A program made the translations under genes and the position numbers. A DNA stretch of 64,000 nucleotides, from contig CM059432.1 of NCBI GenBank assembly GCA_030390025.1, forward strand, positions 43,526,001-43,590,000, read 5' to 3'. Shown piece by piece: positions 4,881 to 61,754 of this stretch (positions are counted from its first letter, which is position 1; each line of letters begins with the position of its first letter). The notes beneath the pieces were generated by a model, which did not search any database, was not told the DNA's origin, and worked only from the letters and a program-made list of their open reading frames with translations. The stretch comes from Squalus acanthias. Its lineage: Eukaryota.

Positions 4881-5479
4881 CCTTCCTCACTAATTTCTGC
4901 ATTGTTGTGTTGCTCCCAGGCAAACAAAAACAGCTTTAATCAGCTGCAGCATTTTAACTACCAAAGCATTAAATTTCCCTCCTCTCAGCAGTAGTAAATC
5001 AATAGGCAACTTATTACTGCCCCAAATACATAAGTAGGACCAGCCCAGGAAACTTCAGCAGGTTAGTGGCGGTATCACACTGTGGGCAGTAGCCCTACCC
5101 CACTACTGACCTATCTTTTGAAGGAGAATCTATGCCCATATGTCACATTTTTCATTATTACCGCCATAGCAGTGCTGGATGTATACAACAGGGGTTCAGC
5201 GTCGCTAAGGTTGGCGGAGGACTTTTAAAGGTTAAAAGGCCATGCCTGGGACTGCATTCGATTGCAGGGCGATTCATCACCCTCCCCTGCCGGTACATAA
5301 GGTGGGATGTTTTATCCTGGAGCAAGTTGTCTTGTTAAGCTGCGACAGGAGCCAGAGTCCTGAAGCAGCAGGGATATTCCATTTGATATGGCAGGCTCCT
5401 TAGCATTGGTGGAAACCTTTCCAGGAGCCTGCAAGACATATTTAAATTAAGCTTATTCCAGGAAATGTACTGGTGCTAT

Positions 5480-5577
5480 AAAAACAGAAAATGCTGGAAA
5501 CACTCAGCAGGTCAGGCAGCATCTGTGGAGAGAGAAACAGAGTTAATGTTTCAGCTCGATGACCTTGCGTCAGAACT
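5480..5577 (-). mobile_element. PLE terminal-repeat fragment with degenerate hammerhead ribozyme motif (5541-5577)
   Basis: Same repeat as 36062-36165 and 44830-44970; minus strand reads agtt-CTGACGC-A-AGGTC-ATC-GAGCT-GAAAC-ATT-aact. Confidence 0.75.
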
Positions 5578-6586
5578 TACTGAGGCTATTGGGTGAGTGA
5601 AAGTCCCACCCTGACTCACTTATGGAGGTAAAGCCACCAAAAGGGAAAATCTCAGTCTAGAATGGCAGTAAACAAACTTCCGTATTTCTATCCTTTTTCT
5701 TTATTGCAGCATTATGACCTCTTCATGTAACCTGTCTGATTAACTGTAGATGTGTGGGTTCCATTTTGATTCAAATTAAACACATTGCAAGTAAACAAAC
5801 ATAAATGTTATTTATTTTAATGGAACACATAGCTAGGTGCCAAAACTAGAAAATCTAGTTGTTTTGTAATGGATCTAGAAATTTCCTTTTCTAATTGTCT
5901 TTAAAAAAAATCAGTTTTAACTTTTTCTAAACCCATTCATTAGTGAATATCCTTTACAGATATTCCAGTGCACAGCTTCTATAGTACTAACTGCTGCCAA
6001 AAGTCATTTTCTCCACAATTTGATTGCTGAGTATTTGAGCTAGAGATAGAGAAATGTGCAGTAATATCCTTGGACTAAAGAGAATCACTTTTAAAATTAT
6101 TTTTCAAATCTTTTGCTGACATTTTCCCTTTGATATTTATTTACCCTTTCAGTACTAAACTGCACCAAAACTCAATTCACATGACTAGAAAAGATATCTG
6201 CAACTCTGCAATAAACGTAGCAAAATGGAAATGGTGCAGGAGGTTGGGAACAGATTCTGGGGATAGGTGAAATTTGAGTGAGGTTTAAACAGCAACATTT
6301 GTAAGTTCTATGGAACAATACTTAGCATGAAAAAAGATACAATGTTGCAACAGTTGATACGTGCCTGCTGTAAACACTGCTGTACAGGTAAGGTTCAATC
6401 CCCAGTGTGTGATGAGTTTGATGAATTCATCCAGGGCAGTGGTAAGAATGCTCAATTGGCTTTGGTGCCTGTCGGTTAGAGAAGGAAAAGTCAGCCAAGA
6501 TTTACATTCCTGATCCATGACTCCTGCTGGGAAGTGCTCTTGTGCATATTGGGTATGATTGGAATTGGCTCCGAGCCCGATACAAT

Positions 6587-20780: not shown

Positions 20781-22030
20781 ATGGGTACCATTACTTTCCT
20801 TTCCTCCTGGACATCAGATGAGGACGAGGAGCAGCCGCGGCAGCAGCCGAACCATGACCAACAGCAGCAGCAACAGCAGCAGCTCCAAGCTGCTGCTCAC
20901 CCACCTGAAGCTGCACAGGCCAGAGGGCGCCAGCGCTTGGAAGCACGTCGGCACAGGAGATACCCCCCAAACAGGGTGTACAGACAGAGGATCAGCTACC
21001 TCAGCATGACTGAACAGCAGTGCCAAAGGCGGCTCCGACTTTCGCGGGAGGCAGTGGGTGACATATGCGCAATGGTCCAGCAAGACCTGCAGCCCAGAGG
21101 AGCAGGTGGACACCCCTTACCAGTGGCTGTCAAGGTCACCACCGCACTCAACTTTTTTGCCACAGGCTCATTCCAGGGATCAGCTGCAGACATCAGCGGC
21201 ATTTAGCAGGCGGGCGCACACACCTGCATCACGCAGGTAACCGATGCCATCTTTGCCCTCGCTCACAATCACATCCATTTCTCCAAGGATCGACCAAGTA
21301 TCAGGGCGCGTGCGGTTGGATTTGCTCATCTGGCAGACTTTCCAAGGGTGCAGGGCGTCGTGGACTGCACATATGTGGCCTTAAGGCACCCCATTGCAAT
21401 CCAGGTATTTTTGTCAACCGCAAGGGCTTCCACTCCCTCAACGTGCAGCTGGTGTGTGACCACAAGAAGGAAATTTTGCATGTTTGTGCCAAGTATCCTG
21501 GCAGTTGCCATGACTCCTTCATCCTGCGCCAGTCTAGTGTGCCTCCGCTCTTCAGTCCGCCAGACCAACTTAACGGATGGCTACTTGGAGACAAGGGCTA
21601 TCCCCTGAAGACGTGGCTAATGACGCCGTTGAGGAGCCCATCCAACGAGGCTGAGGAGAGCTACAACTCCAGCCACATGTCCACCAGAGCCATTATCGAG
21701 CAAACCATTGGCTTGCTAAAGATGCGCTTCAGATGCCTGGATAGATCAGGTGGAGCCCTGCAGTACTCAGCAGCCAGGGTCTCCAGAATCGTCGTGGTTT
21801 GCTGTGCACTTCACAACATGGCACAGCGTCGTGGCCTGCAGATTCCTGAGGACCAAGTGGCTCATCACATAGCCTCCTCAGATGACGAGGAGGAGGAGGA
21901 GGAGGAGGAGGTGGAGGAGGAGGGCGACAATGGTCATCCTGCAGAGGCGCATCAACCAGCGGCAGGAGTACGCGAGCACATTGCTGCCCGGGATGCAAGG
22001 AACGCACTCATCCTGGCCAGATTTGCTTAG
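20781..22030 (+). pseudogene. Harbinger DDE transposase (HARBI1-like family), one nonsense codon and one frameshift
   Basis: ORFs 20781-21206 and 21065-22030 join: [80 protein letters not shown] at 21204-21206; frameshift near 21380. Confidence 0.92.
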
Positions 22031-27600: not shown

Positions 27601-27755
27601 AATACTGTAATTCTGATGTTCTTGGGGTTTTCAGCATTAACTCTCCTGTTTCAGGGCCCTTCTGCAACATTCATGAAAAACTGGACAAAGCATGCATCGT
27701 GCATGTTACGGCAAATTTTTCCAGTTCTGAGGAAGGGTCACAGACCTGAAACCTT

Positions 27756-29231
27756 GGGCTGGATTTTCCGGGGGGTCAGAGGGCGCGATAGGTGGTGGGA
27801 CAAGTGAGAAAGTATTTTTTTTCCCCAGCGGGTCAGGACCTCGCTGTGAACCCATTGCCACGCGCCTTTACCAAATGTCGGGTCTGTCAGTGCTGAGCAG
27901 ACCCGACACGCAACGGCGGGGCAGGCAACTAAAATCATTAGTGGCTTGTTTACAGCCACTTAATAATGTTTTTTTCCCAGCATTTTGGATTTGACAGGTT
28001 GCCCACTGGTTTCCTGCTGTGCCTAGATCTCGTCTGTGAAGCTGAGGCGGGAGGTCAGTGGCCATTGAACCAGCTGATGTGTTGACAGATTCAACTGTCA
28101 AGTCAAAACATCCAGCTGATTGAGAAATGTTCCCTTAACCACTAGCTTCTCTAAACTGCATTTCCATTACAGAGTCAGGATGCTGCAAGTCTTTACACAA
28201 GTCTCCATCCAGTCTGACCTCATTAACTCTCCCACCATTGACAGATCGCTTCTGTCATCTCGACTTCACCTGCCATCTATTCCATCAGCATGGGTGCCCT
28301 TGAAACTCACCCACCTTGGTCCTCAGAATGCCACCACGATCAGCCCCAAAACCAGCATCACCAGGCACACCAGCAACACCAGGCACACCAGCATCACCAG
28401 GCACACCAGCATCACCAGGCACACCAGCAGCACCAGGCACACCAGCAGCACCAACAATAGCACCAACCTTCTCCACAATCAACTGATGCTACACAGGACA
28501 CAGGGCATCAGCACCCGACCACATTGCTGCCTGGGAGGCCAGGGATGGCCTCACCATGGCCAGATTTACTTCACTTGATGCTGTACACCCTGGCTGCTAC
28601 ATGATGCTCCAGGTTGGCACCACCCCACACCAACACCATAAAGCATCCCTACAATGCCCAAGCCATTCCTTTCACACTCATGACCATTGCAGGGGGTACC
28701 GTTATGTCTCACAACTCATTGCAACTCACTAAGCCACTTTCAGGTTCACTAGACTAATCCCTGAGAGAGTTGTCCAATAAGGAGAGATTGAGTAGATTAG
28801 GCCTATACTCTTTGGAATTTAGAAGAATGAGAGGAGATCTCATTGAAACATTCTGAGGGGGAATAGATGCTGAGAAATTGTTTCCCATGGCTGGAGAGTT
28901 CAGAACTAGGGGGCATAGTCTCAGGGTAAGGGGTCGGCCTTTTAAGACTGAGACGAGAAGGAACTTCTTCACTCAGAGAGTTGTGAATCTTTTGAATTCT
29001 CTGCCCCAAAGGGCTGTGGATGCTCAGTCATTGAGTATATTAAGATTGAGAGAGATAGATTTTTGGATTGTAGGGGAATCTAGGGATATGGGGATAGGGC
29101 AGGAAAGTGGTGTTGAGGTCGTAGATCAGCCGTGATCATATTGAATGGCCGGGATGGAGACCGCAGCGGGGTCGGGACCCGCCACCGACGTCGCCCGCCA
29201 TGGACGCGCCAAGCTTCATAAAATCCAGCCC
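27756..29231 (+). mobile_element. Non-autonomous Harbinger deletion derivative, copy 1 (contains CR1 3' fragment at about 28755-29150)
   Basis: Perfect 12-bp TIR GGGCTGGATTTT / AAAATCCAGCCC, flanks CTT/GTT; interior homologous to 36645-39233 and 51424-53190. Confidence 0.85.
28359..28448 (+). repeat. 18-bp tandem repeat x5 (CACCAGGCACACCAGCAN)
   Basis: Directly visible; a single unit is present in the sibling copies. Confidence 0.85.
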
Positions 29232-30329
29232 GTTAACTCTGTTTCTCTCTCCACAGATGCTGCCTGACCTGCTGAGTATTTCCAGCATTTTCTCTTTTTA
29301 TTTCAGATTTCCAGCATCGGCAGTATTTTGCTTTTGTTTCCAGTTCTGCAATGGTCTAACCAGTGGTCTTAAAGGGCGGGAGGACATCGAAGAAATGGTC
29401 GTTTTTTTTCAACTTCTCCACCTGTTGAGCCGGGAGGAAGCGGAGTGCTCCTCGTGGCTCCACAGCACTACTGCGGGCCGCCACCAGAGAAGTGCACAAA
29501 GCAGAAAACTCTGGCCAGAAGTGCAGCAGAAACATTGTATTCACCTGCAAATGGAGTTCCGCTGCACTTCTAGTGAAATAACGCTGGTAGAGTGGGAGCA
29601 GCTCTGAGGAAATTCCTGGCCTTTATGTTTCACAGCACTAACGATCTGCAACATTAACAAAAAATTAAAACTATGTGAATATAACTAATAAGTGAATTAA
29701 ATATCTGGAGTTTTCAATGAGCAATCACAAAAATTGGTGGTTTTCATTTTTACATCCGTGAGCTTTGATATAAACACAATCAAATATGAGAAGAAGAAAA
29801 CAAAGAAGTACTACAGGGTTGCAAAAGCAGTGTATCTAAAGTCACTGATGTGTGATGCTGTATATTTTGTGTATGGCTCCTGCTACAAACTGTACAGCTG
29901 TCTCATAGGGCAACGGATATTTCAAAGCCTGCAGACTGTATATGATAGATAGGCAAGCATAGTACAAGCCATAAATCGCATTTAAAACAACAATAACAGC
30001 CATCTTCAGCTGAAGGTGTTTTTGTAGATACAACCCCACACAAGCAATATCAATACATAAAGTAAAAGACCAGAAAGCTGTACATTTATATAATCATTAA
30101 GGTTAGTTTAAATCAAGTTATACCTATGATAGAGGAATCCATTTCCACATGTCTAGACTCATATACAGCAGCCATGCAAATAAAGTACATCTCCCGCACC
30201 AATGATATATTTGTTCTGAAAGATATGCTTTTGACACTTCCATGATTTGCACAATAGTACTAGTTTTCACGCAAAATGTTTAATATTTAAAGGGATATTG
30301 CTTTTGTTTTTTTTGTTTTGTTTGGGGAG

Positions 30330-32021: not shown

Positions 32022-34538
32022 ATGGAGGCGAGGACTGCTACATGGAAGAGGGAAGTGCTTTTCCATCACTGCTTGTGGGCCAGGAGGAGTATCAATCAGG
32101 AAATAGTTGAGGCATGTAATAAGGGAACATCTATAATTATGGGGGATTTTAACTATCATATTAATTGGACAAATCAAATGGGGCAGGGCTGCCTTGAGGA
32201 TGAGTTCATTGAGTGTATTAGGGATGGGTTTCTTGAGCAGTATGTAACTGAACCGACCAGGGGGCAAGCAACCTTAGATCTGGTCCTGTGTAACGAGACA
32301 GGATTAATTAAAAATGTCCTAGTAAAGGATCCCCTTGGAATGAGTGACCATAACATGGTTGAATTCCATATTCAATTAGAGGGTGAGAAGGTTGGATCTC
32401 AAACAAGCGTGCTAAGCTTGAATAAAGGAGACTATGAAGGTATGCGAGCGGAATTGAGTAGAGTGGATTGGGAAAATAGATTAAAGGGTAAGACGACACA
32501 TGATCAGTGGTGTACATTCAAGGAGTTATTTTACAACTTCCAAAAAAAATATATTCCACTGAAAAGAAAAGGGTGTAAAAGAAAGGACAGTCATCCGTGG
32601 CTAAGTAAAGAAATTAAGGATAGTATTCGACTAAAAACAAGGGCATATAAGGTAGCGAAATCTAGTGGGAGGACAGAGGATTGGGAAAACTTTAAAAGGC
32701 AGCAAAAAATAACAAAAAGATTGATTAAGAAAGGGAAGATAGATTATGAAAGTAAATTAGCAAAAAATATAAAAACAGATAGTAAGAGTTTTTATAGTTA
32801 TATAAAAAGAAAAAGGGTGGCTAAAGTAAATGTTGGTCCCTTAGAGGATGAGACCGGGAAATTAATGGTGGGAAATATGGAGATGGCAAAAACACTGAAT
32901 GAATATTTTGTATCAGTCTTTACAGTAGAGGACACTAAGAATATCCCAACACTGGACAAACAGGGGGCTATAGGGGGAGAGGAGCTAAACACGATCAAAA
33001 TCACTAAGGAAGTGGTACTCGGTAAAATAATGGGACTCAAGGCGGATAAATCACCTGGACCTGATGGCTTACATCCTAGAGTCTTGAAGGAAGTGGCGGT
33101 AGGGATTGTAGATGCATTGGTAATAATTTTTCAAAACTCCCTGGATTCCGCTAAGGTCCCGGCAGACTGGAAAACTGCTAATGTAACACCCTTATTTAAA
33201 AAGGGCAGTAGACAGAAGGCTGGTAACTATAGACCGGTTAGCCTAACATCTGTGGTAGGTAAAATTTTGGAGTCCATTATTAAGGAAACAGTAACAGGAC
33301 ATTTGGATAATCATAATTTAATAGGACAAAGTCAGCATGGTTTTACGAAGGGGAAGTCATGTTTGACAAATTTGCTGGAGTTCTTTGAGGAAGTAACATA
33401 TAGAGTGGATAAAGGGGAACCAGTGGACGTAGTGTATTTAGACTTCCAAAAGGCATTTGACAAGGTGCCACACAAAAGATTATTGCTTAAGATAAAAAAT
33501 CACGGGATTGGGGGTAATATTCTGGCATGGATAGAGGATTGGCTATCTAACAGAAAGCAAAGAGTTGGGATAAATGGTTCATTCTCAGACTGGCAATCAG
33601 TAACTAGTGGTGTTCCACAGGGGTCAGTGCTGGGTCCCCAACTCTTCACAATCTATATTAACGATTTGGAGGAAGGGACCAAGTGTAACATATCAAAATT
33701 TGCAGATGATACAAAGATGGGAGGGAAAGTAGTGAGTGAGGAGGACATAAAAAACCTGCAAGGGGACATAGACAGGCTAAGTAAGTGGGCAGAGATTTGG
33801 CAGATGGAATACAACACTGGAAAGTGTGAGGTGATGCACTTTGGCAGGAAAAATCCTAGAGCAATTTATTATCTTAATGGCAAGAAACTGGAGAGTACTG
33901 AAGTGCAAAGGGATCTGGGGGTCCTGGTGCACGAAACTCAAAAGGTTAGTATGCAGGTGCAGCAAGTGATTAAGAAGGCAAATGGAATGTTGGCTTTCAT
34001 TGCTAGGGGGATAGAATATAAAAATAGGGAGGTATTGCTTCAGTTGTACAAGGTATTGGTGAGACCGCACCTGGAATACTGCATACAGTTTTGGTGTCCT
34101 TACTTAAGGAAAGACATCCTTGCTCTCGAGGCAGTGCAAAAAAGGTTCACTCGGTTAATCCCGGGGATGAGGGGGTGGTCATATGAGGAGAGGTTGGGTA
34201 GATTGGGACTCTACTCATTAGAGTTCAGAAGAATGAGAGGCGATCTTATTGAAACATATAAGATTGTGAAGGGGTTGGATCGGGTGGATGCGGGGAGGAT
34301 GTTCCCGATGACGGGTGAGACGAGAACTAGGGGACATAGTCTTAGAATAAGGGGCTGCTCTTTCAAAACTGAGATGAGGAGGAACTACTTCACTCAGAGG
34401 GTGGTAGGTCCATGGAATATGCTGCCACAAAAAGCTGTAGAAGCTACAACATTAATTAAATTTAAAACAGAAATAGACAGTTTCCTAGAAGTAAAGGGCA
34501 TTAAGGGTTACGGGGAGCGGGCAGGAATTTGGACATGA
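32022..34538 (+). CDS. CR1 ORF2 (partial APE endonuclease plus complete RT), uninterrupted 838 aa; first ~23 codons come from the flanking MITE
   Basis: [56 protein letters not shown] motifs with no stops. Confidence 0.9.
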   Translation: MEARTATWKREVLFHHCLWARRSINQEIVEACNKGTSIIMGDFNYHINWTNQMGQGCLEDEFIECIRDGFLEQYVTEPTRGQATLDLVLCNETGLIKNVLVKDPLGMSDHNMVEFHIQLEGEKVGSQTSVLSLNKGDYEGMRAELSRVDWENRLKGKTTHDQWCTFKELFYNFQKKYIPLKRKGCKRKDSHPWLSKEIKDSIRLKTRAYKVAKSSGRTEDWENFKRQQKITKRLIKKGKIDYESKLAKNIKTDSKSFYSYIKRKRVAKVNVGPLEDETGKLMVGNMEMAKTLNEYFVSVFTVEDTKNIPTLDKQGAIGGEELNTIKITKEVVLGKIMGLKADKSPGPDGLHPRVLKEVAVGIVDALVIIFQNSLDSAKVPADWKTANVTPLFKKGSRQKAGNYRPVSLTSVVGKILESIIKETVTGHLDNHNLIGQSQHGFTKGKSCLTNLLEFFEEVTYRVDKGEPVDVVYLDFQKAFDKVPHKRLLLKIKNHGIGGNILAWIEDWLSNRKQRVGINGSFSDWQSVTSGVPQGSVLGPQLFTIYINDLEEGTKCNISKFADDTKMGGKVVSEEDIKNLQGDIDRLSKWAEIWQMEYNTGKCEVMHFGRKNPRAIYYLNGKKLESTEVQRDLGVLVHETQKVSMQVQQVIKKANGMLAFIARGIEYKNREVLLQLYKVLVRPHLEYCIQFWCPYLRKDILALEAVQKRFTRLIPGMRGWSYEERLGRLGLYSLEFRRMRGDLIETYKIVKGLDRVDAGRMFPMTGETRTRGHSLRIRGCSFKTEMRRNYFTQRVVGPWNMLPQKAVEATTLIKFKTEIDSFLEVKGIKGYGERAGIWT

Positions 34539-34776: not shown

Positions 34777-35742
34777 GTGCTTCCCCCCAACCCCCCGGGC
34801 AAAACCTGTTTCCCACTCCACACGATCGGACCACCCCTCGCGATCGGAACCCCACTCGATCACCGACACCCCCAACCTCCCATCTCTGCCCCCAATCTTT
34901 CTCTGACACCTCGCAATCACCCACCCCCGACCCTCCAAACCACGCTGTACCAACCCTCCCCGTCACAACCTTTAACCTGAGCAGCAGGAAACCTACCTGC
35001 TCCTGGGCTGCTGCCTCTTCTGCAGCGCTCCCTGCCCGACAGGGAGCCAAGCCTGTCAATCAGGTTGACCTCCGGGTGGGAAACCTGTAAAAAAAAAATG
35101 CACACTGTGGAGTTAACACTCCATGGTCCTGACCAGAACTCCTCCCCCAGCCCGGCTTGGAAATAATGCCCCAGTAAGTATTTGGGCCTTCGTGTTTAAT
35201 CCTTCCTACTTTTCGAAGACATAATAGGGCCGATTTTCCTCTTTTCCCATATGTTAGGTAAATGACAGGTGCAGCACACCTGAAGTGCGCTGTGCCGTGC
35301 TTGTAAAGGCCTCCATTCATCTGATCTCGCTTTCCCAAGCCAGTAGTGTTGTTTAGATGTATTTCCAATGCAGGCCCACCTCTTGGCAAGGCCTTGCACC
35401 AGGAACCAGGGGTGGGCACAGGACCACAGCTGCAGACTTAAGAGGTCTTCTGCTGCTTCCTGGCCTCCAGCCTTGGGCATTCTGGCTGCTCGAAGGCCAC
35501 AAAGCTTGAAGGTTCCATTGGGGAAAGTCCAAAGATTACTTACATCATGATATGCCACCAATTCTTGGGCGTATTCCCCGCATCTCCTCAGGGCCTCCGA
35601 TCTGAGGAAGGACCCAGCGCAAAACCCACCGTGAGCTTCTTAGGGTGCTCTCACGTGTGTTGTCTGGGCGTAAAGGTGGGAGGGCCCTTCCACCTCATTT
35701 CTCTTGCCCCAGAAATCTCAGGGCAATATATAAGAGAAGGAG

Positions 35743-36166
35743 CTCGAGGAACAGCACCTCATCTTTCAATTAGGCACTTTACAGCCTTGTGGACTCAACA
35801 TCGAGTTCAACAATTTCAGACCATAACCTCACATTGCAGCTGTCGATCATTCTGCCATTGCCATTTACACTTCATCTAGAGTCATCTTTTGTTTCTTAAC
35901 TTGTCCCATCACCATCTCCTTTTGCCTTGCACCATCATCCCTTTTGTCTCTTAATCTCTCCTGCCTTCCATCCTATCTCAGACCTTCCCTTTTGTTCTTT
36001 CCTCCCCTCCCCCCTCTCCCTGCCCCTACACTTGCATAAAATCTGTTATATCTCTAACTTTTTCCAGTTCTGGCGAAAGGTCATTGACCTGAAACGTTAA
36101 CTCTGTTTCTCTCTCCACAGATGCTGCCTGACCTGCTGAGTATTTCCAGCATTTTCTGTTTTTATT
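35743..36166 (+). mobile_element. PLE 3' end (ORF C-terminus plus terminal repeat)
   Basis: EEQHLIFQLGTLQPCGLNIEFNNFRP* followed by a pyrimidine-rich UTR and the hammerhead-bearing repeat. Confidence 0.85.
36066..36102 (+). ncRNA. Minimal type I hammerhead ribozyme motif (core A6 mutated to G)
   Basis: AGTT-CTGGCGA-A-AGGTC(ATT)GACCT-GAAAC-GTT-AACT. Confidence 0.65.
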
Positions 36167-36644
36167 ATAAGAGAAGGCGACCTGACATAACAGGTCTCCA
36201 TCCCTTTTTTCTCTCCATCACACCTGGGAACTGAGGAGTAGAAATTCAGGTGTGCCCTCTTATTAATCCCTGTGCTTGAATGGTGCCACCCAAGGCGCCC
36301 TCGATATTGATCCTCGGGCCTCATTTCCATCAAGTTGGCGAGGCATGAAAAGCCTGCCGGTGAAGAATGATCGAAGATTCGGCTCCTGCTGGCGCCACAG
36401 CAGCAAAGGTCAGGAGATCGGTGGCTGGAGTGGGGTTCAAGGGACCAGAGGCTAAAGGAATCACCCCTGGTCTTCCGGCTCCACGTTCAGGTATTATATA
36501 TATCTTGTTGGTAACAGTCGGTCCCAAGATTTTTTTTTTTTTGAGTGCAGCTGTTACTGGTGCCGGCTTCCTCAGGGGAAAACAATCTTGGACTGGGAGT
36601 CTCAAACAGGTGTGAGGCCCTTATTTACATATGAAAAAGGCCTA

Positions 36645-39548: not shown

Positions 39549-40733
39549 TGAAGCACTTCTTCTCACAAAGAGTAATTCATACCCTGAATGCGGTTCCAGG
39601 TAGGGTAGTGAAGACAAACACTCTCAAGTCAGTCAAGAGATAGTTAGATGCTGTGATGAGGGACCAGAAATTTCTATCAGAGAATGAGGGAGACAGGCCC
39701 AAAAAGCATTTCTCATTTATACTGATCTTTGTGATGACCTAATTAATAAAACTGGGTAAAAGCTCCTTGCCTTTTTTGTATTTAAACAGGCATTTTACCT
39801 GAATTTTAAAATAAACCATTCTATATTACTACTCTTATTGCTTAATATTAAATTAGTAATATTACCTTTTGGTTAATTTGCTTTCAAAATACCTACTAAT
39901 TAATTGATTATGCAATTCACTCCTCCTCCTAAAATCATACACAAACTGGCCAATAATTAAGTGGCAAACATTGTAAAAATCCAGGCAAAGGGAAACGTAT
40001 TTAATTGAGACAAGACCTTATCAACTGATTTTAGAATTACAGATTAGTGAATTACATATGACAAGCATCAAAAATCACAGAAGCACAGTGATTATTGGTG
40101 ATCCATTTAAAAGATGCTGCCTCACAAATACCTATCTGTCCTTGCATAACAAAATACGCATGCAAGTTGCTGAAAAGCAGTCAATTATTAATGATTTTTC
40201 CAATAAATATGCCTTTATTTAAAAGTCAGTGAACTTCAACTTGGATTAAATGTCTGTGTACTTTAATAAAAATGTGAGTAGGTTAGTAAAATGAGCACTG
40301 TCTCTTTAAAAAAAATGAATTCTATTAGTACAATAGTGCATTGAGATCAGCATTAGACCAAAAAAACCCCGATATTTCATATATCTACATGTGAGAAGCT
40401 TTATCGCGCTTCAGCAAGCTCTAAGAATGCATTTGTAAGACTCAGTTCGACAATACTGCAGCCGATTTAATTTCTCCATTTTATATTATTGAATTTGTTC
40501 TGCAGCCTTTTCCACTTACTTTTCATTTTGTGCTACAGAATTGAGTTTATAATATGTTTTATTTCGACTGACTTGGGCACCTGGTTTTCTGAATGAATAT
40601 CAATACAGCAAAAATAAATTAGGAAAGGCCAAATCAAGAAAAGCTGTTCTAAAGAACTGTTTTGATATGGCTTTTGTTAGACATTTCCCATCCTTATCTG
40701 GTTACATTTCCACTGTAAGGCTGATGAACTTAC

Positions 40734-40899
40734 GATGAGTTGAAATGCAGTGATATTTCTGCTGTTCTCTCCACAGTTCATTGTGACTTTTATCAGCAAC
40801 AGAAATAGAGGGAGACTGAATTAAACAGAAGCTGCTGAACTGGGATCTGCGATAACAATACAAATGGATTTTTCGGACAGAGAAAACAGCTGTCTCCAT
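40734..40899 (-). CDS. Candidate first coding exon of an unidentified host gene
   Basis: ataATGG Kozak context, 55 open codons (METAVFSVRKIHLYCYRRSQ...), GTAAGT donor, in a multi-kb TE-poor stretch; protein not recognised. Confidence 0.3.
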
Positions 40900-43631: not shown

Positions 43632-44829
43632 TGTGTGTGTCTCTCTCTAGTTTCTAGATTAAATATAACTGCATGATATAATGCTCCTTTTATTAGGTGA
43701 TACACTAGTATATTATAAAGAATAGCAAATAGCTGAGCAGGAATTTAAGACAATAATCAAATCTCAGCATTCTGATTCCCTCTTTCAGGATTTATGACCT
43801 CATCAGAACCACTCAATTGAATTGCTACCTTTTGGCTCTGCTACCCATCTATTATCTTACACTTAACCTTTAACAAAAGAACATAAGAAGAATAGAACAA
43901 AAAAAGTCATTCATTTCATCTAGTTCACCCTATCATTTAGGCCCATGTACAGGCTCCACTCAGATTTTTTTAATCTCCCTCTGATTTGTTATCAAGCTCA
44001 TTTAGCCTTTATACCCCATTGTGCTAAGTATATAACATAATACATTTAATCAACATTTTACTCCAGTAGGAATACAAATAGCACAGAACCATACACATTT
44101 TACGGAAAAGATCTTCTAAATACACTGCTATCACTGCATTTCCAGAAATTAACACATTTGTAAAATGCAATTGTGCAAAGTTATATTGAAGAAACTATTT
44201 TGTAGCTTGCTGAAATGGAAGATTTCCTCAAAATGGATCAATGTCTGCCCTCATTGTCTTTCCTCCACTATCTGGATGCCCTTGCCCTTATAAATTCAGA
44301 TGAAGAGCTGGAGAGTCAGAAGAGAAGCTTTACAGGTGAGAAAGGTGTGGAGCCTACAGGTAAAATGGATTCATACGGACGATTGGTTTAAGATAGCAGA
44401 TTTCATGACTGTATAAAAAAACTCTGTGCAGTTTGACAAAGGGTGGACAATTCAGACTGATCCTCATTCAAAATAGAATTGCAAACGTTGTAAAAAAAAA
44501 ACCAGACAGGAACCTTCTCCTGGAAAATTAATGAGCAATGTCTGAATTCATTTGTACATATTTCAAACTGTAATTATGATAAGGGTAAAATTCCAGTTTA
44601 CCATCTGATTATTTAGAAATGCTGATCTAAGTGTCGCATTTCTTGGCAATCTAGTAATGCATTATCATGATTCATGTGCATTTGATCATCACTTTGTATA
44701 GAAGTCACAGTCCAAAACAGCATTAAGATTAATATATCTAAAAACTACAACTTTCATTCATATCTAAGCAGTATTTTGCAGTTTTGGCCCAGAAAATAGT
44801 ATTAGGATTTCAAACAAAGGTTAAAAGCC

Positions 44830-45308
44830 AATACAAAAGCAAAGTACTGCGGATGCTGGAGTCCTGAAATAAAAACAGAAAATGCTGGAAATACTCAGCG
44901 GGTCGGGCAGCATCTGTGGAGAGAGAAACAGAGTTAATGTTTCAGGTCGATGACCCTTCGTCAGAACTGGAAAAAGCTGGAGATGGAACAGGTTTTTAAG
45001 CAAGTGTAGGGGCAGGGAGAGGGGGAGGAGAGGAAAGAACAAAAGGGAAGGTCTGAGATAGGGTGGAAGGCAGGAGAGGTTAAGAGACAAAAGGGTTGAT
45101 GGTGCAAGGCAAAAGGAGATGGTAATGGGACAAGTTAAGAAACAAAAGATGACTCTAGATGAAGTGTAAATGGCAATGGCTGAATGATCGACAGCTGCCA
45201 TGTGAGAGAGAGAGAACAAAAAGAAAAAAAAGATAGTGGCAGAGGTTATGGTCTGAAATTGTTGAACTCGATGTTGAGTCCAGAAGGCTGTAAAGTGCCT
45301 AATTAAAA
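44830..45308 (-). mobile_element. PLE 3' end (inverted relative to 35743-36166)
   Basis: Reverse-complement homology to 35760-36166. Confidence 0.85.
44932..44968 (-). ncRNA. Minimal type I hammerhead ribozyme motif (CUGACGA intact; G>A change in the stem III palindrome)
   Basis: Minus strand reads AGTT-CTGACGA-A-GGGTC(ATC)GACCT-GAAAC-ATT-AACT. Confidence 0.7.
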
Positions 45309-45678
45309 GTAAATGGCTGTACTGGCCCAGCAGTGTAGTAGTTAAGGTGCCCACTTGATATCCCTGTAGTGACAAATTCAGCCTTGTAGCTTCCTGAAAA
45401 CCACCTCACTCTGCCCCCATGGTGAGGTATCCCCTCAAAGTAGAGGGACAACAACAACAGCAACAACAATAACTTGCACTCGTATCATGCCTTTAATATA
45501 ATGAAACATCCCAAGGAGTTTCACAAAGGAAGAACAATGATCAACAGCTAGGACAGACAACTGAAGATGTGGTCACAGAGATAGGTTCTAAGGGGGCTAT
45601 TGATGGTGGGTGGGAGATATGTAGTGAGGCTGAAGGGTTTAGGAAGAGAATTCCAGGTTATAGTGGTATAATGGCTAA

Positions 45679-45987
45679 AGACCTCGGCAGATTCAAATGG
45701 TGAGTGGGAGCCCAGGAGAGCGCGAGACCTCGGCAGATTCAAAAGGTGAGCGAGAGCCCAGGAGAGCGCGAGACCTCGGCAGATTCAAATGGTGAACGAG
45801 AGCCCAGGAGAGCGCGAGACCTCGGCAGATTCAAAAGGTGAGCGAGAGCCCAGGAGAGCGCGAGACCTCGGCAGATTCAAAAGGTGAGCGAGAGCCCAGG
45901 AGAGCGCGAGACCTCGGCAGATTTAAAAGGTGAGCGAGAGCCCAGGAGAGCGCGAGACCTTGGCAGATTCAAAAGGTGAGCGAGAGC
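45679..45987 (+). repeat. 46-bp tandem repeat, about 6.7 copies, at the CR1 5' end
   Basis: Unit AGACCTCGGCAGATTCAAAAGGTGAGCGAGAGCCCAGGAGAGCGCG starts at 45679, 45725, 45771, 45817, 45863, 45909 and 45955. Confidence 0.95.
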
Positions 45988-50444: not shown

Positions 50445-53400
50445 GACAAGGTGGCACACAACCAGAGGCAGCAGGAGCTAACTGGTGGGGGACATACTTC
50501 CCTCTTTTTTTGAAGAAGGTGGCGCATAACAACAGGCAGCAGCAAAGAACTGGAGGAGGACAAGCGCGCCTGCATATTTTAACCCTCATGGAGGAGACAG
50601 TGCTGGCTATCATGGGAAGGCGCATCACTAATGCCGTGGCCACTGGTGAGGCTGAAGCGAGCGATGATGAGGGTATCTACATATCTAATCCTCCTTCACT
50701 CATCCCACTTCTACTTCATCCCGTGATCTCTTCCGACTTAGAAGCTTCAGATGGTGTAAGCACGCACTTCTTACTTTTGCCTCTCCACTCACCACAACCG
50801 TACATTTGTCCCTTTTTCACTTCAGATACCCAAGAACTGGAACCTTCCCAGTCAGTGGAGGAAGAGGAAGAAGACAGTGATCTTACACTTGCAGCCATCA
50901 GCTCAGAGACTGACATTGCAAGTATTTTAGAGACTAGGATAGAGGAGGGATCTACACGTGGTGAGACACCGGGCACCAGTGCACAAGAGCCAGTGCGGGG
51001 GGAAAGGATAGCACAGGTGTCAGCTCACCGGAGCGTGAGATCGCACACTAGTTCTGCTGCAGAGGAGTCAGATGAGGACTTCGATGGGCCAGGCTACAGA
51101 AGAAGGCTGATGGGTGCAAATGCTTGGTGCACTAGAAAGCCTGCCAGAAAGCCTGCGCTCAATGTCAAGGAGCATGGAGGAGTCTGGCACCAACTTAGCA
51201 CAGGGCTTTGTGCAGACCTTGGAGCCTATCCTTTCCAACATGGAACGGGTGGTCACCTCCATCAGCACACCTGTGGAACCCACCATGATGCAGCATCTGA
51301 TGATCAATGCCACAGCTTCCATTGCAGTACAAAAAGCTTCCATCAAAGGTCTGAGTGCTGCACTAGAAACTCAAACTGCTGCCTTGCAAGCTCAGACTGC
51401 TGCCATCATGGCTGTGAATACCAGGCCGCGATTTTTCCTACCTCGGCGGGTCCGTGGCGGGCGACGTTGGTGGCGGGTCGCTGCCCCGCTGCTGGCTCCA
51501 TACAGGCCTCCGACATGACTTTCCCCTGATGGGGCTTGTTAAGCCTGCCCAGTAAGTTTCCCGGACAATTGAAGGAAGCGGGTCTGATGACGTCATTTGA
51601 TGGCGCGTTAGCTGCTGGTTTCCTTAAAGGGACCATGCATAAATTTACTTTGATATTTGTGGTGTCAGTATTCTACAGCATTGAGGTGCTGCAAACACTG
51701 ACAAGCACTGCACAGAGGTGCACGGCTGCACCCAGGCTCTCCCATGACTCCCTCCACATGCTTATGGAAGGAGTCAAAGCACGCAGGGAGGTTCTCTTCC
51801 CTTCCAATGGGCAGAAGAGGCCTCCCCAGGAGATCAATGCAACCTGGTTGCACATTGCAGAGGAGGACACAAGCAAGGATGTCATCAGGAGGACCAGGCT
51901 GCAGTGGCGCAAACCTTTCAATTATCTCAGTAGATCACAAAACGTTACTGCAAAGCCACACTCAGCCTCATCCTGCTGTGCCACTCATCACATCCCCATC
52001 ACTCTGCCTTCCCTACCCTACTCCTGCACATCCTTACTCAGACCAACTTACCTTGCACCTCCACCCATCTCTCTCTATCTACATTATCACTTCCCCATCT
52101 CACTAGCCACCCCTCACACTCACCCTCATCATAGAGCAATCATACCAACAAAGAAAATACAAGGGTAGGCACTTGGGCGTTTTAGCCAATGTTCATGTGA
52201 AGTTTCTGTTAATGTGGTGTCAAACATTGAAATCTTTATTTTCAACACTTTGCGTTCTTGGACAGATTTGTCTGCACCTTTGGAAGTGGCTTAGTGAGTT
52301 GCAGCGAATGGTGAGACATAACAGTACCACCCGCAATGGTGATGAGTGTGAAAGGAATGGCTTGGGCAGGGATGCTTTATGTTGCTGGTGTGGCGTGGTG
52401 CCAACCTGGCGCATCATGTGGCATCCAGGTTGTGCAGCATCAAGTGAAGTAAATGTGGCCATGGTGAGGCTATCCCTGGCGTCCCGGGCAGCAATGTGGT
52501 CGGGTGCTGATGCCCTTTGTCCTGTGCAGCATCAGGTGATTGCGGAGAAGGTTGGTGTGGTTGTTGGTGCTGCTGGTGTGCCTGGTGATGCTGGTGTTGG
52601 GGCTGGTCGTGGTCAGATTCTGAGGACCAACGTGAGAGAGTTTCAAGGGCACCCATGTTGATGGAATAGATGGCAGGTGAAGTAGAGATGACATAAGCAA
52701 TCTGTCAATGGTGGGAGAGGTAATGATGTCAGACTGGATGGAGACTTGTGTAAAGACTTGCAGCATTCTGAATCTGTAGTGGAAATGCAGTTTAGATAAG
52801 CTAGTGGTTAAGGGAACATTTCTCAATCAGCTGGGAGCTTTGACTTGACATTTGAAGCTATCAACTCATCAGCTGATTCAATGGCTACTGACCTCTTGCC
52901 TCAGCTTCACAGACAAGGTCTAGGCACAGCGGGAAACCGGTGGGCGACTCATCAAATTCAAAAAGCTGGGAACAAAAGCCTTGTTAAGTGGCTGTAAACA
53001 AGCCACTAATGATTTGAATTGGGCCGCCCACCGCTGCCTGTTGGGTTTGCTCAGCGCTGACAGACCCAACATCGGGAAATGCAGGTGTGCGTGTTTTGAC
53101 AGTGGGTTCCCGACCCGCTGTCAATCATTTTAAATTTCACAGCTGACCCGCCACCCATCCCATCCACTGAGCGCCGGCAAAATCGTGGCCCCAGTGTTCA
53201 AAGGGGCTTCCAGGGCGTTACAGCAGTCCATCAATCCGTTCTCCAACAGATCAGGAGAATTGCTAAGGTGCTGCCCCGGGAGAGTGGCAATGGCTCCATG
53301 GGGCATAAACTTGCATTCCTGCCTCAGGATCACAACATTCCTGCTCCCACCCCTGCCACTCTGCCAGTGCCCTTGCTGTTGCCTGTCAGCCAGCCAGTCC

Positions 53401-56757: not shown

Positions 56758-58603
56758 TCATAGAATCATAGAAAGTTACAGCACAGAAGGAGGCCATTTC
56801 GGCCCATCGTGTCCGCACCAGCCAACAAAGCGCTAGCCAGCCTAATCCCACTTCCCAGCTCTTAGTCTGTAGCCCTGCAGGTTACAGCATCCCAAGTGCA
56901 CATCCAAGTACTTTTTAAATGTGGTTAGGGTTTCTGCCTCTACCACCCTTTCAGGCAGCGAGTTCCAAACCCCCACAACCCTCTGGGTGAAGAAATTTCC
57001 CTTCAAATCCCCTCTAAACCTTCCACCAATTACTTTAAATCTGTGCCCCCTGGTTTTTGACTCCTCTGCTAAGGAAAATAGGTCCTTTCTATCCACTTTA
57101 TCTAGGCCCCTCATAATTTTATACACCTCAATAAGGTCTCCCCTCAGCCGCCTCTGTTCCAAGGAAAACAATCCCAGCCTATCCAGTCTTTCCTCATAGC
57201 TAAGATTCTCTACTCCCAGCAACATCCTTGTAAATCTCCTCTGTACTCTCGCTAGTGCAATCACATCTTTCCTGTAATGTGGTGACCAGAACTGCACGCA
57301 GTACTCTAGCTGAGGCCTAACTAGTGTTTTATACAGTTGAAGCATAACCCCCCTGCTCTTGTATTCTATGCCACGGCTAATAAAGGCAAGCATTCCGTAT
57401 GCCTTCTTAACCACCTTATCTACCTGGCTTGCTACCTTCAGGGATCTGTGGACAGGCACTTCAAGGTCCCTTTGTTCCTCTACACTACTCAGTGTCCTAC
57501 CATTTAATGTGTATTCCCTTTCCTTGTTAGCCCTCCCCAAATGCATTACCTCACACTTCTCCGGATTGAATTCCATTTGCCACTGTTCTGCCCACCTGAC
57601 CAATTTATTGATATCTTCCTGCAGCCTACAGCTTCCTTCTTCAGTATCAACCACACAGCCGATTTTAGTATCATCTGCAAACTTCTTAATCATACCCCCT
57701 ATATTCAAGTCTAGATCATTGATATATACCACAAAAAGCAAGGTACCTAGTACTGAGCCCTGCAGAACCCCACTGGAAACAGCCTTCCAGTCACAAAAAC
57801 ACCCATCAACTATTATCCTCTGCTTCCTGCCTCTGAGCCAGTTTTGAATCCAACTTGACACTTTGCCCTGGATCCCATGGGCTTTTAACTTCGTGACCAG
57901 TCTGCCATGTGGAACCTTATCAAAAGCCTTGCTAAAGTCCATATACACTACTTCAAACGCACTACCCTCATCTACCCTCCTCGTTACCTCCTCAAAAAAT
58001 TCAATCAAGTTTGTCAGACACGACCTTCCCTTAACAAATCTGTGCTGACTATCTTTGATGAATCCATGTCTTTCTAAATGAAGATTTATCCTGTCCTTCA
58101 GAATTCTTTCCAATAATTTCCCACCACCGAGGTTAGGCTGACTGGCCTGTAATTACTCGGTCTATCCTTTTCTCCCTTTTTAAACAAGGGTACCACATTA
58201 GCAGTCCTCCAGTCCTCCGGCACCACACCTGAAGCCAGAGAGGATTGGAAAATGATGGTCAGGGCCTCTGCTATTTACTCTTTTGCTTCACTTAACAGCC
58301 TGGGATACATTTCATCCGGGCCTGGGGATTTATCCACTTTTAAAGCTGCTAAACCCCATAATACTTGCTCTCTCACTATGTTTATTTCATCTAATATTTC
58401 ACACTCCTCCTCCCTGATAGCAATGTCTGCTTCGTCCCTCTCCTTTGTGAAAACAGATGCAAAGTATTCATTAAGAACCCTATCGACGTCTCCCACCTCC
58501 ACACACAGATTACCCTCATGGTCTCTAATAGGCCCTACTCTTTCTTTAGTTATCCTCTTACTCTTAATATATTTATAAAACATCTTTGGGTTTTCCTTGA
58601 TCT
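56758..58603 (-). mobile_element. CR1 LINE, 5'-truncated; RT open for 423 aa (56842-58113)
   Basis: [27 protein letters not shown]; tail catagaatcatag on +. Confidence 0.92.
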
Positions 58604-60617: not shown

Positions 60618-61754
60618 TTCGGGGCGTCATCCTGCGCCTGCAGAATCGGAGGCAACAGAGACGCAGAGGCCAGACGGAGGAAGGCCAACAGGCCTCTGCA
60701 CAGGAGACCTTACCCTCCCAGGGTATTCCGGGAACAATTCTCCTACATTAATTTGTCTGAGGGGCAGTGTTTGCGCAGGCTGCACTTCAGCAAGGAGGTG
60801 GTCACTGAGCTCTGCCACCTGCTGCAGCCAGATCTGCAGCCTCAACTGAGGACCAGGACGTCTCTGTCGGTGGCAGTGAAGGTCACAGTGGCTCTGAATT
60901 TTTATGCCACTGGCTCCTTTCAAGCAGCTACTGGGGACATCGCCAATATCTCCCAGTTCGCGGTCCATTGCTGTATCCGTCAGGTCACAGATGCCCTCTA
61001 TAAAAGGAGACGCCAGTACATCTCTTTCCCGATGACCCGGGCCAAACAGCATGAACGTGCATTAGGCTTTGCGAGGATAGCGGGTTTCCCCATGGTGCAG
61101 GGCGCCATTGACTGCACGCATGTGACATTGCGGGCACTGCATGAGAATGCAGAGGTTTTCCGAAACCGCAAAGGGTTCCACTCCTTAAACGTCCAGTTGG
61201 TCTGTAACCACAGACAGCTGATACTCGCTGTTAATGCCCGCTATCCTGGCAGCTGCCACGATGCTTTCATCCTGCGTCAGACTGGTGTGCCAGAACTTTT
61301 CCAGGCACCGCATCAACCAAGTGGTTGTCTCCTCGGGGACAAGGGTTATCCACTCTGCACCTGGCTGATGACACCGCTCCGTAACCCCAACACCCCTGCT
61401 GAGCTACGGTACAATGAGAGCCATCTCGCCACCAGGAACATCATTGAGCAGACGATCGGCGTGCTCAAGCAATGGTTCCGCTGTCTGGACCACTCAGGAG
61501 GAGCCCTGCAGTACTCGCCTGAGCGAGTCTCCCTCTTCATAGTTGTGTGCTGCATTCTTCATAACCTGGCAATCCTCAGGACCCAGCCAATGCCACCAGG
61601 CCTTGGAGCACCACTGGAGGAGGAGGAAGAGGAGGAGGAAGAGGTGGAGGAAGAGGAGGAGGATGATCAGCGGCAGCACCAAGGCGGGAGGGAGGCCCAC
61701 AATGTTGAAACTGCAAGGGCCGTCTGTCAACGACTGATAACAAGCTGCTTCTAG
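60618..61754 (+). CDS. Harbinger DDE transposase (HARBI1-like family); frame open from 60618, start codon unresolved
   Basis: [66 protein letters not shown]; in-frame TGA at 60615-60617. Confidence 0.88.
   Translation, partial: FGASSCACRIGGNRDAEARRRKANRPLHRRPYPPRVFREQFSYINLSEGQCLRRLHFSKEVVTELCHLLQPDLQPQLRTRTSLSVAVKVTVALNFYATGSFQAATGDIANISQFAVHCCIRQVTDALYKRRRQYISFPMTRAKQHERALGFARIAGFPMVQGAIDCTHVTLRALHENAEVFRNRKGFHSLNVQLVCNHRQLILAVNARYPGSCHDAFILRQTGVPELFQAPHQPSGCLLGDKGYPLCTWLMTPLRNPNTPAELRYNESHLATRNIIEQTIGVLKQWFRCLDHSGGALQYSPERVSLFIVVCCILHNLAILRTQPMPPGLGAPLEEEEEEEEEVEEEEEDDQRQHQGGREAHNVETARAVCQRLITSCF

Follow-up and report, generated by a model that had tools for sequence, protein, structure and literature searches.

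The hammerhead motif described here lies in the terminal repeat of an abundant Penelope-like element (PLE), and we favor, with a probability of roughly 0.6, a reading in which its genomic copies were made from uncut RNA and in which cleavage is conditional, assisted, and unneeded for producing the insertion template. Within the window (the whole 64,000-nucleotide stretch of DNA that we analyzed), four copies are present where an earlier note on this DNA had placed them. We refer to them by approximate position as the 44k, 36k, 5k, and 27k copies (Table 1); the last is split into 27723–27755 and 29232–29238 on the forward strand. Because the predicted cut site lies within each of the four copies and none begins at it, the insertions were likely copied from uncut RNA.

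Four copies of a minimal hammerhead

From 5′ to 3′, the motif comprises a 4-bp stem I, CUGANGA, one extra base, a 5-bp stem II with a 3-nt loop, and GAAA, followed by C15.2-G16.2, U16.1, U17, and the 3′ strand of stem I. On the 36k copy (+), these elements correspond to 36066–36069 (stem I), 36070–36076 (C3–A9), 36077 (the extra base), 36078–36082 paired with 36086–36090 (stem II), 36091–36094 (G12–A15.1), 36095 (C15.2), 36096 (G16.2), 36097 (U16.1), 36098 (U17), and 36099–36102 (stem I, 3′ strand). A minimal-hammerhead descriptor that tolerated at most one core and at most one stem II mismatch matched the window three times, precisely at the three unsplit copies (44k, 36k, and 5k). The same descriptor gave a mean of 0.04 matches (maximum 1) on 100 dinucleotide shuffles of the window, and we therefore rejected chance as the source of the motif. 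We also rejected a canonical hammerhead of the Rfam type, since the Rfam covariance models yielded no hammerhead family among 10 matches at E ≤5. A sensitive self-search of the window found no further copies. CUGANGA-GAAA-like matches elsewhere in the window (e.g., 40721–40746 and 43782–43806) failed the descriptor and were discarded. The first of these belongs to a longer stretch at 40721–40780 (+), in which a CUGAUGA...GAAA-like sequence is followed by a pyrimidine tract with a family-like end; this stretch, which failed the descriptor, could represent an aged copy from a different family or a chance match.

Table 1. Positions in the window of the hammerhead copies, the element copies that carry them, and associated features
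Feature	Position	Strand	Details
Hammerhead motif, 44k copy	44932–44968	−	Stem III palindrome disrupted by G16.2>A; predicted cut between 44936 and 44935
5′-truncated PLE copy, 44k	44833–45302	−	ORF end, pyrimidine-rich 3′ region (T/CT-rich insert of ~40 nt), hammerhead, long 3′ end
Last 18 codons and stop of PLE ORF (putative GIY-YIG endonuclease C-terminus), 44k	45246–45302	−	tblastn P0127–P0130
Optional 36-nt tail, 44k	44833–44868	−	
Target-site duplication, 5′ copy, 44k	45303–45314	−	10/12 match
Target-site duplication, 3′ copy, 44k	44821–44832	−	
Hammerhead motif, 36k copy	36066–36102	+	Palindrome intact; A6>G at 36073 (private); predicted cut between 36098 and 36099
Predicted competing hairpin, 36k	36091–36109	+	G12–C15.2 (36091–36095) pairs with 36105–36109
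Putative splice-acceptor-like stretch, 36k	36097–36123	+	Branch-like motif over the cut site, pyrimidine tract, AG, then ATG; variation at 36119
5′-truncated PLE copy, 36k	35741–36165	+	Short 3′ end, without tail
PLE ORF end, 27–28 codons and stop, 36k	35741–35826	+	18/26 identical to P0128 C-terminus
Target-site duplication, 5′ copy, 36k	35729–35740	+	12/12 match with 36166–36177
Target-site duplication, 3′ copy, 36k	36166–36177	+	
Hammerhead motif, 5k copy	5541–5577	−	A9>C, G16.2>A, and a G-G mismatch in stem II
98-bp PLE copy from the first base of stem I, 5k	5480–5577	−	Short 3′ end; duplication 5578–5589 / 5468–5479 (10/12)
Left part of split hammerhead, 27k	27723–27755	+	First 7 bases within the 12-bp duplication 27718–27729
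Right part of split copy, 27k	29232–29336	+	Cleavage triplet, stem I 3′ strand, 3′ region, 35-nt tail
Target duplication of split copy, 27k	27718–27729 / 29337–29348	+	12/12
Harbinger-like insertion of 1,476 bp at the cleavage triplet, 27k	27756–29231		12-bp terminal inverted repeats; 3-bp flanks (2/3 alike)

The copies are close relatives, differing pairwise at 6/100 places, and the 5′ core is complete in 44k and 27k, with one change each in 36k and 5k. An extra base separates A9 from 10.1 in all four. The earlier note described stems I and II as kept. As a statement about conservation this holds, with 31 of 32 stem cells paired across the four copies (slid controls, 9%–47%) and a single exception in the stem II mismatch of 5k; covariation, however, is not seen, as none of the nine pairs is altered on both sides and one is altered on a single side among only four close copies. 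The loop of stem II does vary as described, with four sequences of three types (AUC twice, AUU, ACA). The AACGUU palindrome fared less evenly, being intact in 36k, altered by G16.2>A in 44k and 5k, and interrupted in 27k; the 15.2–16.2 pair is C-G in 36k and, on either side of the split, in 27k. As the note also stated, every copy is damaged (Table 1), the 27k copy by a break at 27755/27756.

At 10.1–11.1, the usual G10.1-C11.1 pair is absent; we observed A-U in two copies and G·U in the other two. Loss of this pair would lower hammerhead activity, and a family with U11.1 in its place may have no activity at all.

We compared the motif with the minimal hammerheads (min-HHRs) of PLE pLTRs, as described in the available text of Cervera and de la Pena (2014; PMC4209133). 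The two share the type I arrangement, the absence of loop III, a palindromic 15.2–16.2, an extra base between 9 and 10.1, and a 4-bp stem I, and in both cases, most copies are lone and truncated and lie downstream of an ORF end. They differ at 10.1–11.1, which is A-U or G·U here and a G-C pair there, highly conserved according to that text even though it lies outside the descriptor. They also differ in stem II, which has 5 bp with a 3-nt loop here and 7–8 bp in the schistosome families. The motif matches the descriptor of a metazoan PLE min-HHR and lacks the typical G10.1-C11.1 pair, which lies outside that descriptor. Neither sharks nor skates are mentioned in the two supplementary files of that study that we searched. 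Reports of hammerheads in PLE terminal repeats date back to 2014, and the motif itself adds little.

Truncated copies of an endonuclease-positive element

Judged from the sequence, the four copies are independent 5′-truncated insertions of an endonuclease-positive (EN+) PLE, because they combine an ORF end, 12-bp duplications, and two classes of 3′ end. The setting in a PLE terminal repeat that the earlier note had proposed is borne out by the ORF end, the target duplications, and the optional tail. The stop codon of the ORF lies ~240 nt upstream of the motif, and its terminal peptide is encoded at the 5′ ends of the 36k and 44k copies, which are 86% identical over 443 aligned columns. In the 44k copy, this peptide gave tblastn matches of 71%–76% over 17 aa (two ungapped matches; E 0.001–0.004 for the window). 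All four copies are flanked by 12-bp target duplications (12, 12, 10, and 10 of 12 positions matching); a match of at least 10/12 arose by chance in 0.8% of 20,000 random site pairs under a 13 × 13 offset search.

Two of the four copies end early, and the other two extend for 35–36 nt more. These tails fit the 30- to 40-bp PLE tail that is described as optional in the available portions of PMC8557442 and PMC11167929, and tail-like loose ends past 36163–36166 were found in a public DNA run (X1; see below). No tandem or inverted pLTR arrangement was found in the window; among the X1 contigs, two step back by 100 bases, and 4, 8, and 8 switch strand near the motif. Both short copies begin at the 5′ edge of stem I and not at the cut site, exactly so in 5k (5577) and within ~9 bases in 27k (about 27718–27730; n = 2). 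We also noted a tandem array with a 46/92-bp period at 45679–45987, ~370 bases upstream of the 44k copy.

The element resembles two known systems in its layout. Like Poseidon of Anolis carolinensis (PAc), as presented in the accessible text of Frangieh et al. (2024; PMC11167929), it carries a hammerhead in its pLTR and has two classes of 3′ end that lie a 30- to 40-nt tail apart, and PAc insertions derive from uncut RNA, as those here likely do. Like the non-LTR retrozymes, which the available parts of PMC7229834 and bioRxiv 10.64898/2026.07.22.740005 report in one chondrichthyan genome, the copies are small, lack coding capacity, carry a type I hammerhead, and stem from a PLE pLTR. Unlike retrozymes, the copies here are dispersed, single, and of unequal length, and two retain ORF sequence. 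We rejected a tandem retrozyme, as the window has no tandem units and the 100-base step back was seen in only two X1 contigs.

The link to a PLE protein was made in two steps. The 30-aa peptide from the ORF end matched seven proteins in a 50% library, five of them at their own C-terminus. Residues 106–168 of one matched protein then led to seven longer proteins among 23 candidates, all from rays, and five ray proteins were scanned. Four of the five had a GIY-YIG match extending into the shared C-terminal region, at 18.7–20.9 bits, under the Pfam cut-off of 22.6. YIDD was found in two of the five and variants of it in two more; the reverse transcriptase (RT) is absent from the truncated window copies. 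The window peptide was 67%–70% identical to the C-terminal motif of four ray proteins over 27 aa and 59% identical to that of the fifth over 22. In all five, a CX3-4CX2C linker precedes the GIY-YIG domain, whose two motifs flank a pair of cysteines; in the available text of PMC8557442, the two cysteines are the hallmark of PLE endonucleases, and the linker that of Neptune and Nematis. By this two-step and short (27-residue) but consistent link, the window copies appear to belong to an RT plus GIY-YIG ORF of a PLE. By themselves, the two window peptides gave no Pfam family match. Homologues come from rays and sharks, and the host is therefore probably an elasmobranch. P0005 is a skate gene model for a neuromedin-U receptor whose C-terminus derives from the element; a homologue search based on it was misdirected, and its matches, which were receptors, were set aside.

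The name Penelope used in the earlier note is apt in the broad sense of a PLE. More narrowly, the closest database proteins have a linker of the Neptune/Nematis type, which is Zn-finger-like and which Penelope and Poseidon lack; the five ray proteins share this linker and the two cysteines with Neptune/Nematis, whereas the window copies have neither RT nor linker, and the putative clade placement is based on 27 residues. We found no publication on this shark-type PLE family in the open-access literature that we searched. A different PLE RT fragment lies at 1–461 (−); it is 29%–39% identical to the ray PLE proteins, contains YIDD, is frameshifted, and runs past the start of the window.

The 27k copy is interrupted by a Harbinger-like insertion whose 3-bp flanks repeat the cleavage triplet (2/3 alike). 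The 12-bp terminal inverted repeat of this insertion, with ≤2 mismatches, can be found at 13 places in the window. Also encoded there are two DDE_Tnp_4 transposase frames at 21062–22030 (+) and 60618–61754 (+) and a weak Myb/SANT match at 51530–52168 (+); several Harbinger-type elements are thus present. Harbinger elements have 3-bp duplications and repeats of 25–50 bp, longer than the 12 bp here, according to the accessible text of PMC9179366. Nested in the insertion that splits the hammerhead is a LINE-like piece (28742–29149) similar to LINE copies of the window. LINE frames with RVT_1 lie at 32022–34538 (+; also with an AP-type endonuclease, 838 aa open) and 56842–58152 (−), and both are probably of the CR1 type. 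The 12-bp duplication that flanks the split copy has the sequence of the element's stem I region. A match of this length between target and cDNA end is unusual, and because of it the first bases of the 27k copy may derive from the target by homology-aided joining.

Family-level variation in public runs

We aligned four of the 24 listed runs to 35700–36200 (501 bases). One of them, the DNA run X1, consists of contigs and possibly represents the window's own species or sample; 85,473 of its contigs aligned to this stretch. Run X21 contributed 18 reads and run X22 none, and a single contig of RNA run X16 aligned, outside the motif. Small shares in six RNA runs were given no weight as evidence.

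In X1, A6 is A in 97.8% of the depth, and the A6>G change of the 36k copy is therefore private to that copy. The variable places listed within the 37-nt motif were N7 (16%), 10.1 (A to G, 40%), and two bases of loop II (18% and 77%); the change at 10.1 keeps pairing, turning A-U into G·U. Three of these four places fall on the five unconstrained places of the 37 (hypergeometric P ~ 0.005, computed after seeing the data). No variation at 15.2/16.2 appears among the X1 rows listed. The lowest share among rows listed on X1 evidence alone was 13%, and X1 variants outside those listed (22 rows) are probably rarer. U11.1 is nearly fixed, with C in 1.2% of the X1 depth; C was seen in three of five X21 reads. 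For the best-supported variant rows, then, the family core looks constrained, and the intact family-level core that the earlier note envisaged appears to be there among the rows listed.

The summed depth of X1 contigs climbs across the motif, but alignments are clipped there by private mismatches, and we do not take this depth as a map of 5′ ends or as copy number. For X1, the table of frequent ends was empty, and none of the eight loose-end rows listed (634 more lie outside the list) falls at the cut site, contigs being a weak test of ends. Pattern scans for more copies gave 0 matches in viral contigs, 0 and 1 in metagenome contigs, and 0 in prokaryote genomes. We attribute the one metagenome match (L001) to chance, as it has no other similarity to the window and no fold of the motif.

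Folding, cleavage and competing readings

A single copy cannot close helix III because loop III is absent; two copies together can. A sequence predicted to form a competing hairpin follows the motif in all four copies; with the 15 nt after the motif, the hairpin forms with predicted probabilities of 0.71, 0.83, and 0.99, versus ≤0.04 for stem I, and in longer contexts, its probability is 0.86–1.0. In the available text on known systems, a schistosome min-HHR was inactive as a monomer and weak as a dimer (PMC4209133), and the anole PLE hammerhead cleaved only with the element's protein, while its mutants inserted normally in vitro (PMC11167929).

Together with the site-spanning copies, these predictions and precedents suggest that self-cleavage is likely conditional and not a required processing step. 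Intact source elements would undergo cleavage after U17 only once helix III joins two copies via the ACGU palindrome, and cutting would also need the competing downstream hairpin to be opened. Help would most likely come from the protein that the element encodes, as it does in the anole case; assistance of this kind is carried over by analogy from an element of the Poseidon clade. On this view, cleavage would be regulated and would happen slowly or late, and it would not be the step that makes the template for insertion, with reverse transcription beginning at one of two internal sites (the short end, or the end plus tail) and passing through the intact motif.

The earlier note had instead proposed dimeric self-cleavage, in which tandem transcripts fold by themselves into a double hammerhead and cut after GUU as the family's way of processing its RNA. 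We consider this unlikely. All pairs of the double hammerhead are standard in 36k (two are broken by G16.2>A in 44k and 5k), dimer cleavage of PLE hammerheads is reported in the available text of PMC6765202, the core looks constrained at the family level, and religated or circular RNA could have given rise to site-spanning copies, a route proposed in the accessible part of PMC4209133. On the other hand, dimeric processing sits poorly with the four site-spanning copies, the lack of end rows at the site among those listed in X1 (a weak test), the competing hairpin, and the replacement of G-C at 10.1–11.1. The double-hammerhead fold (−9.9 kcal/mol) also lies 17 kcal/mol above the best dimer fold (−26.9 kcal/mol), as calculated on a lesioned copy with a model that ignores tertiary contacts. 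The anole precedent points the same way: alongside the normal insertion of mutants, the available text of PMC11167929 describes no RNA-seq reads starting or ending at the cut site.

It is more doubtful still that the motif is a catalytically dead relic beside the start of reverse transcription, conserved because the family amplified recently or because the motif serves a different function, for example in binding protein. The substitution of U11.1 for C11.1, the predicted inhibitory hairpin, and the lack of covariation are what a relic would look like, and the small pairwise divergence of the copies leaves little time for decay. PLE clades without hammerheads thrive, and hammerheads are perhaps parasites of PLEs (available text of PMC8557442). 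A dead motif is, however, at odds with family-level variation that spares the core and keeps the 10.1–11.1 pair, and with a motif that is kept across PLE clades and cleaves in the anole element (accessible text of PMC11167929).

Two further readings draw on the stretch just after the cut site, where all four copies have a branch-like motif, a pyrimidine tract, AG, and ATG, followed by a frame open through to the element's end. The candidate ATG lies 22 nt after the cut, whereas the start codon of PAc lies at stem II, 26 nt before the cut, according to the available text of PMC11167929. One reading sees these 25 nt as a three-way switch, with the cut site inside a branch-point motif, a pyrimidine tract that locks the ribozyme off, and AG followed by a start codon. 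The choice between translation and self-cleavage would depend on splicing or protein binding and not solely on dimer formation, and the tendency of short copies to start at stem I's 5′ edge would point to a defined RNA boundary at that place. We regard such a switch as very improbable.

The other reading places the hammerhead in the 3′ end of a 5′-UTR intron, with a branch point that overlaps the cut site so that splicing and self-cleavage are mutually exclusive, the pyrimidine tract serving as the inhibitory strand and the AUG after AG starting the next ORF. The end of the 5′-UTR intron of Drosophila Penelope does overlap helix I, and yet the acceptor descriptor has 43 matches across the window, visual inspection of the retained part revealed no GTRAG donor, and no spliced joint falls at the site among the 15 joints listed for the DNA run (117 more lie outside the list). 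Within the AG, the A is replaced by G in 19% of the X1 depth and by C in 6/10 reads of a related organism (X21). The frame after ATG matched two host gene models and no PLE protein, and one of these models reads through the supposed acceptor. On this evidence, we give the intron the least credence of all the readings. The AG of stem I, which would be the counterpart of the acceptor in Drosophila Penelope, was rejected because the descriptor failed on it in all copies.

An abundant family such as this one suits a test, based on copy 5′ ends and RNA ends, of whether cut RNA serves as template. With its nearly fixed U11.1 and predicted inhibitory hairpin, the family is also well placed for examining whether cleavage is protein-assisted beyond the Poseidon clade.

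Finally, we noted three shark and skate host gene models (P0005, P0134, and P0135) that include pieces of the repeat family as coding exons. The models are predictions and may be annotation artefacts; the pieces form the C-terminus of a receptor and, in an RNF14 isoform, an N-terminus that begins inside the hammerhead region.
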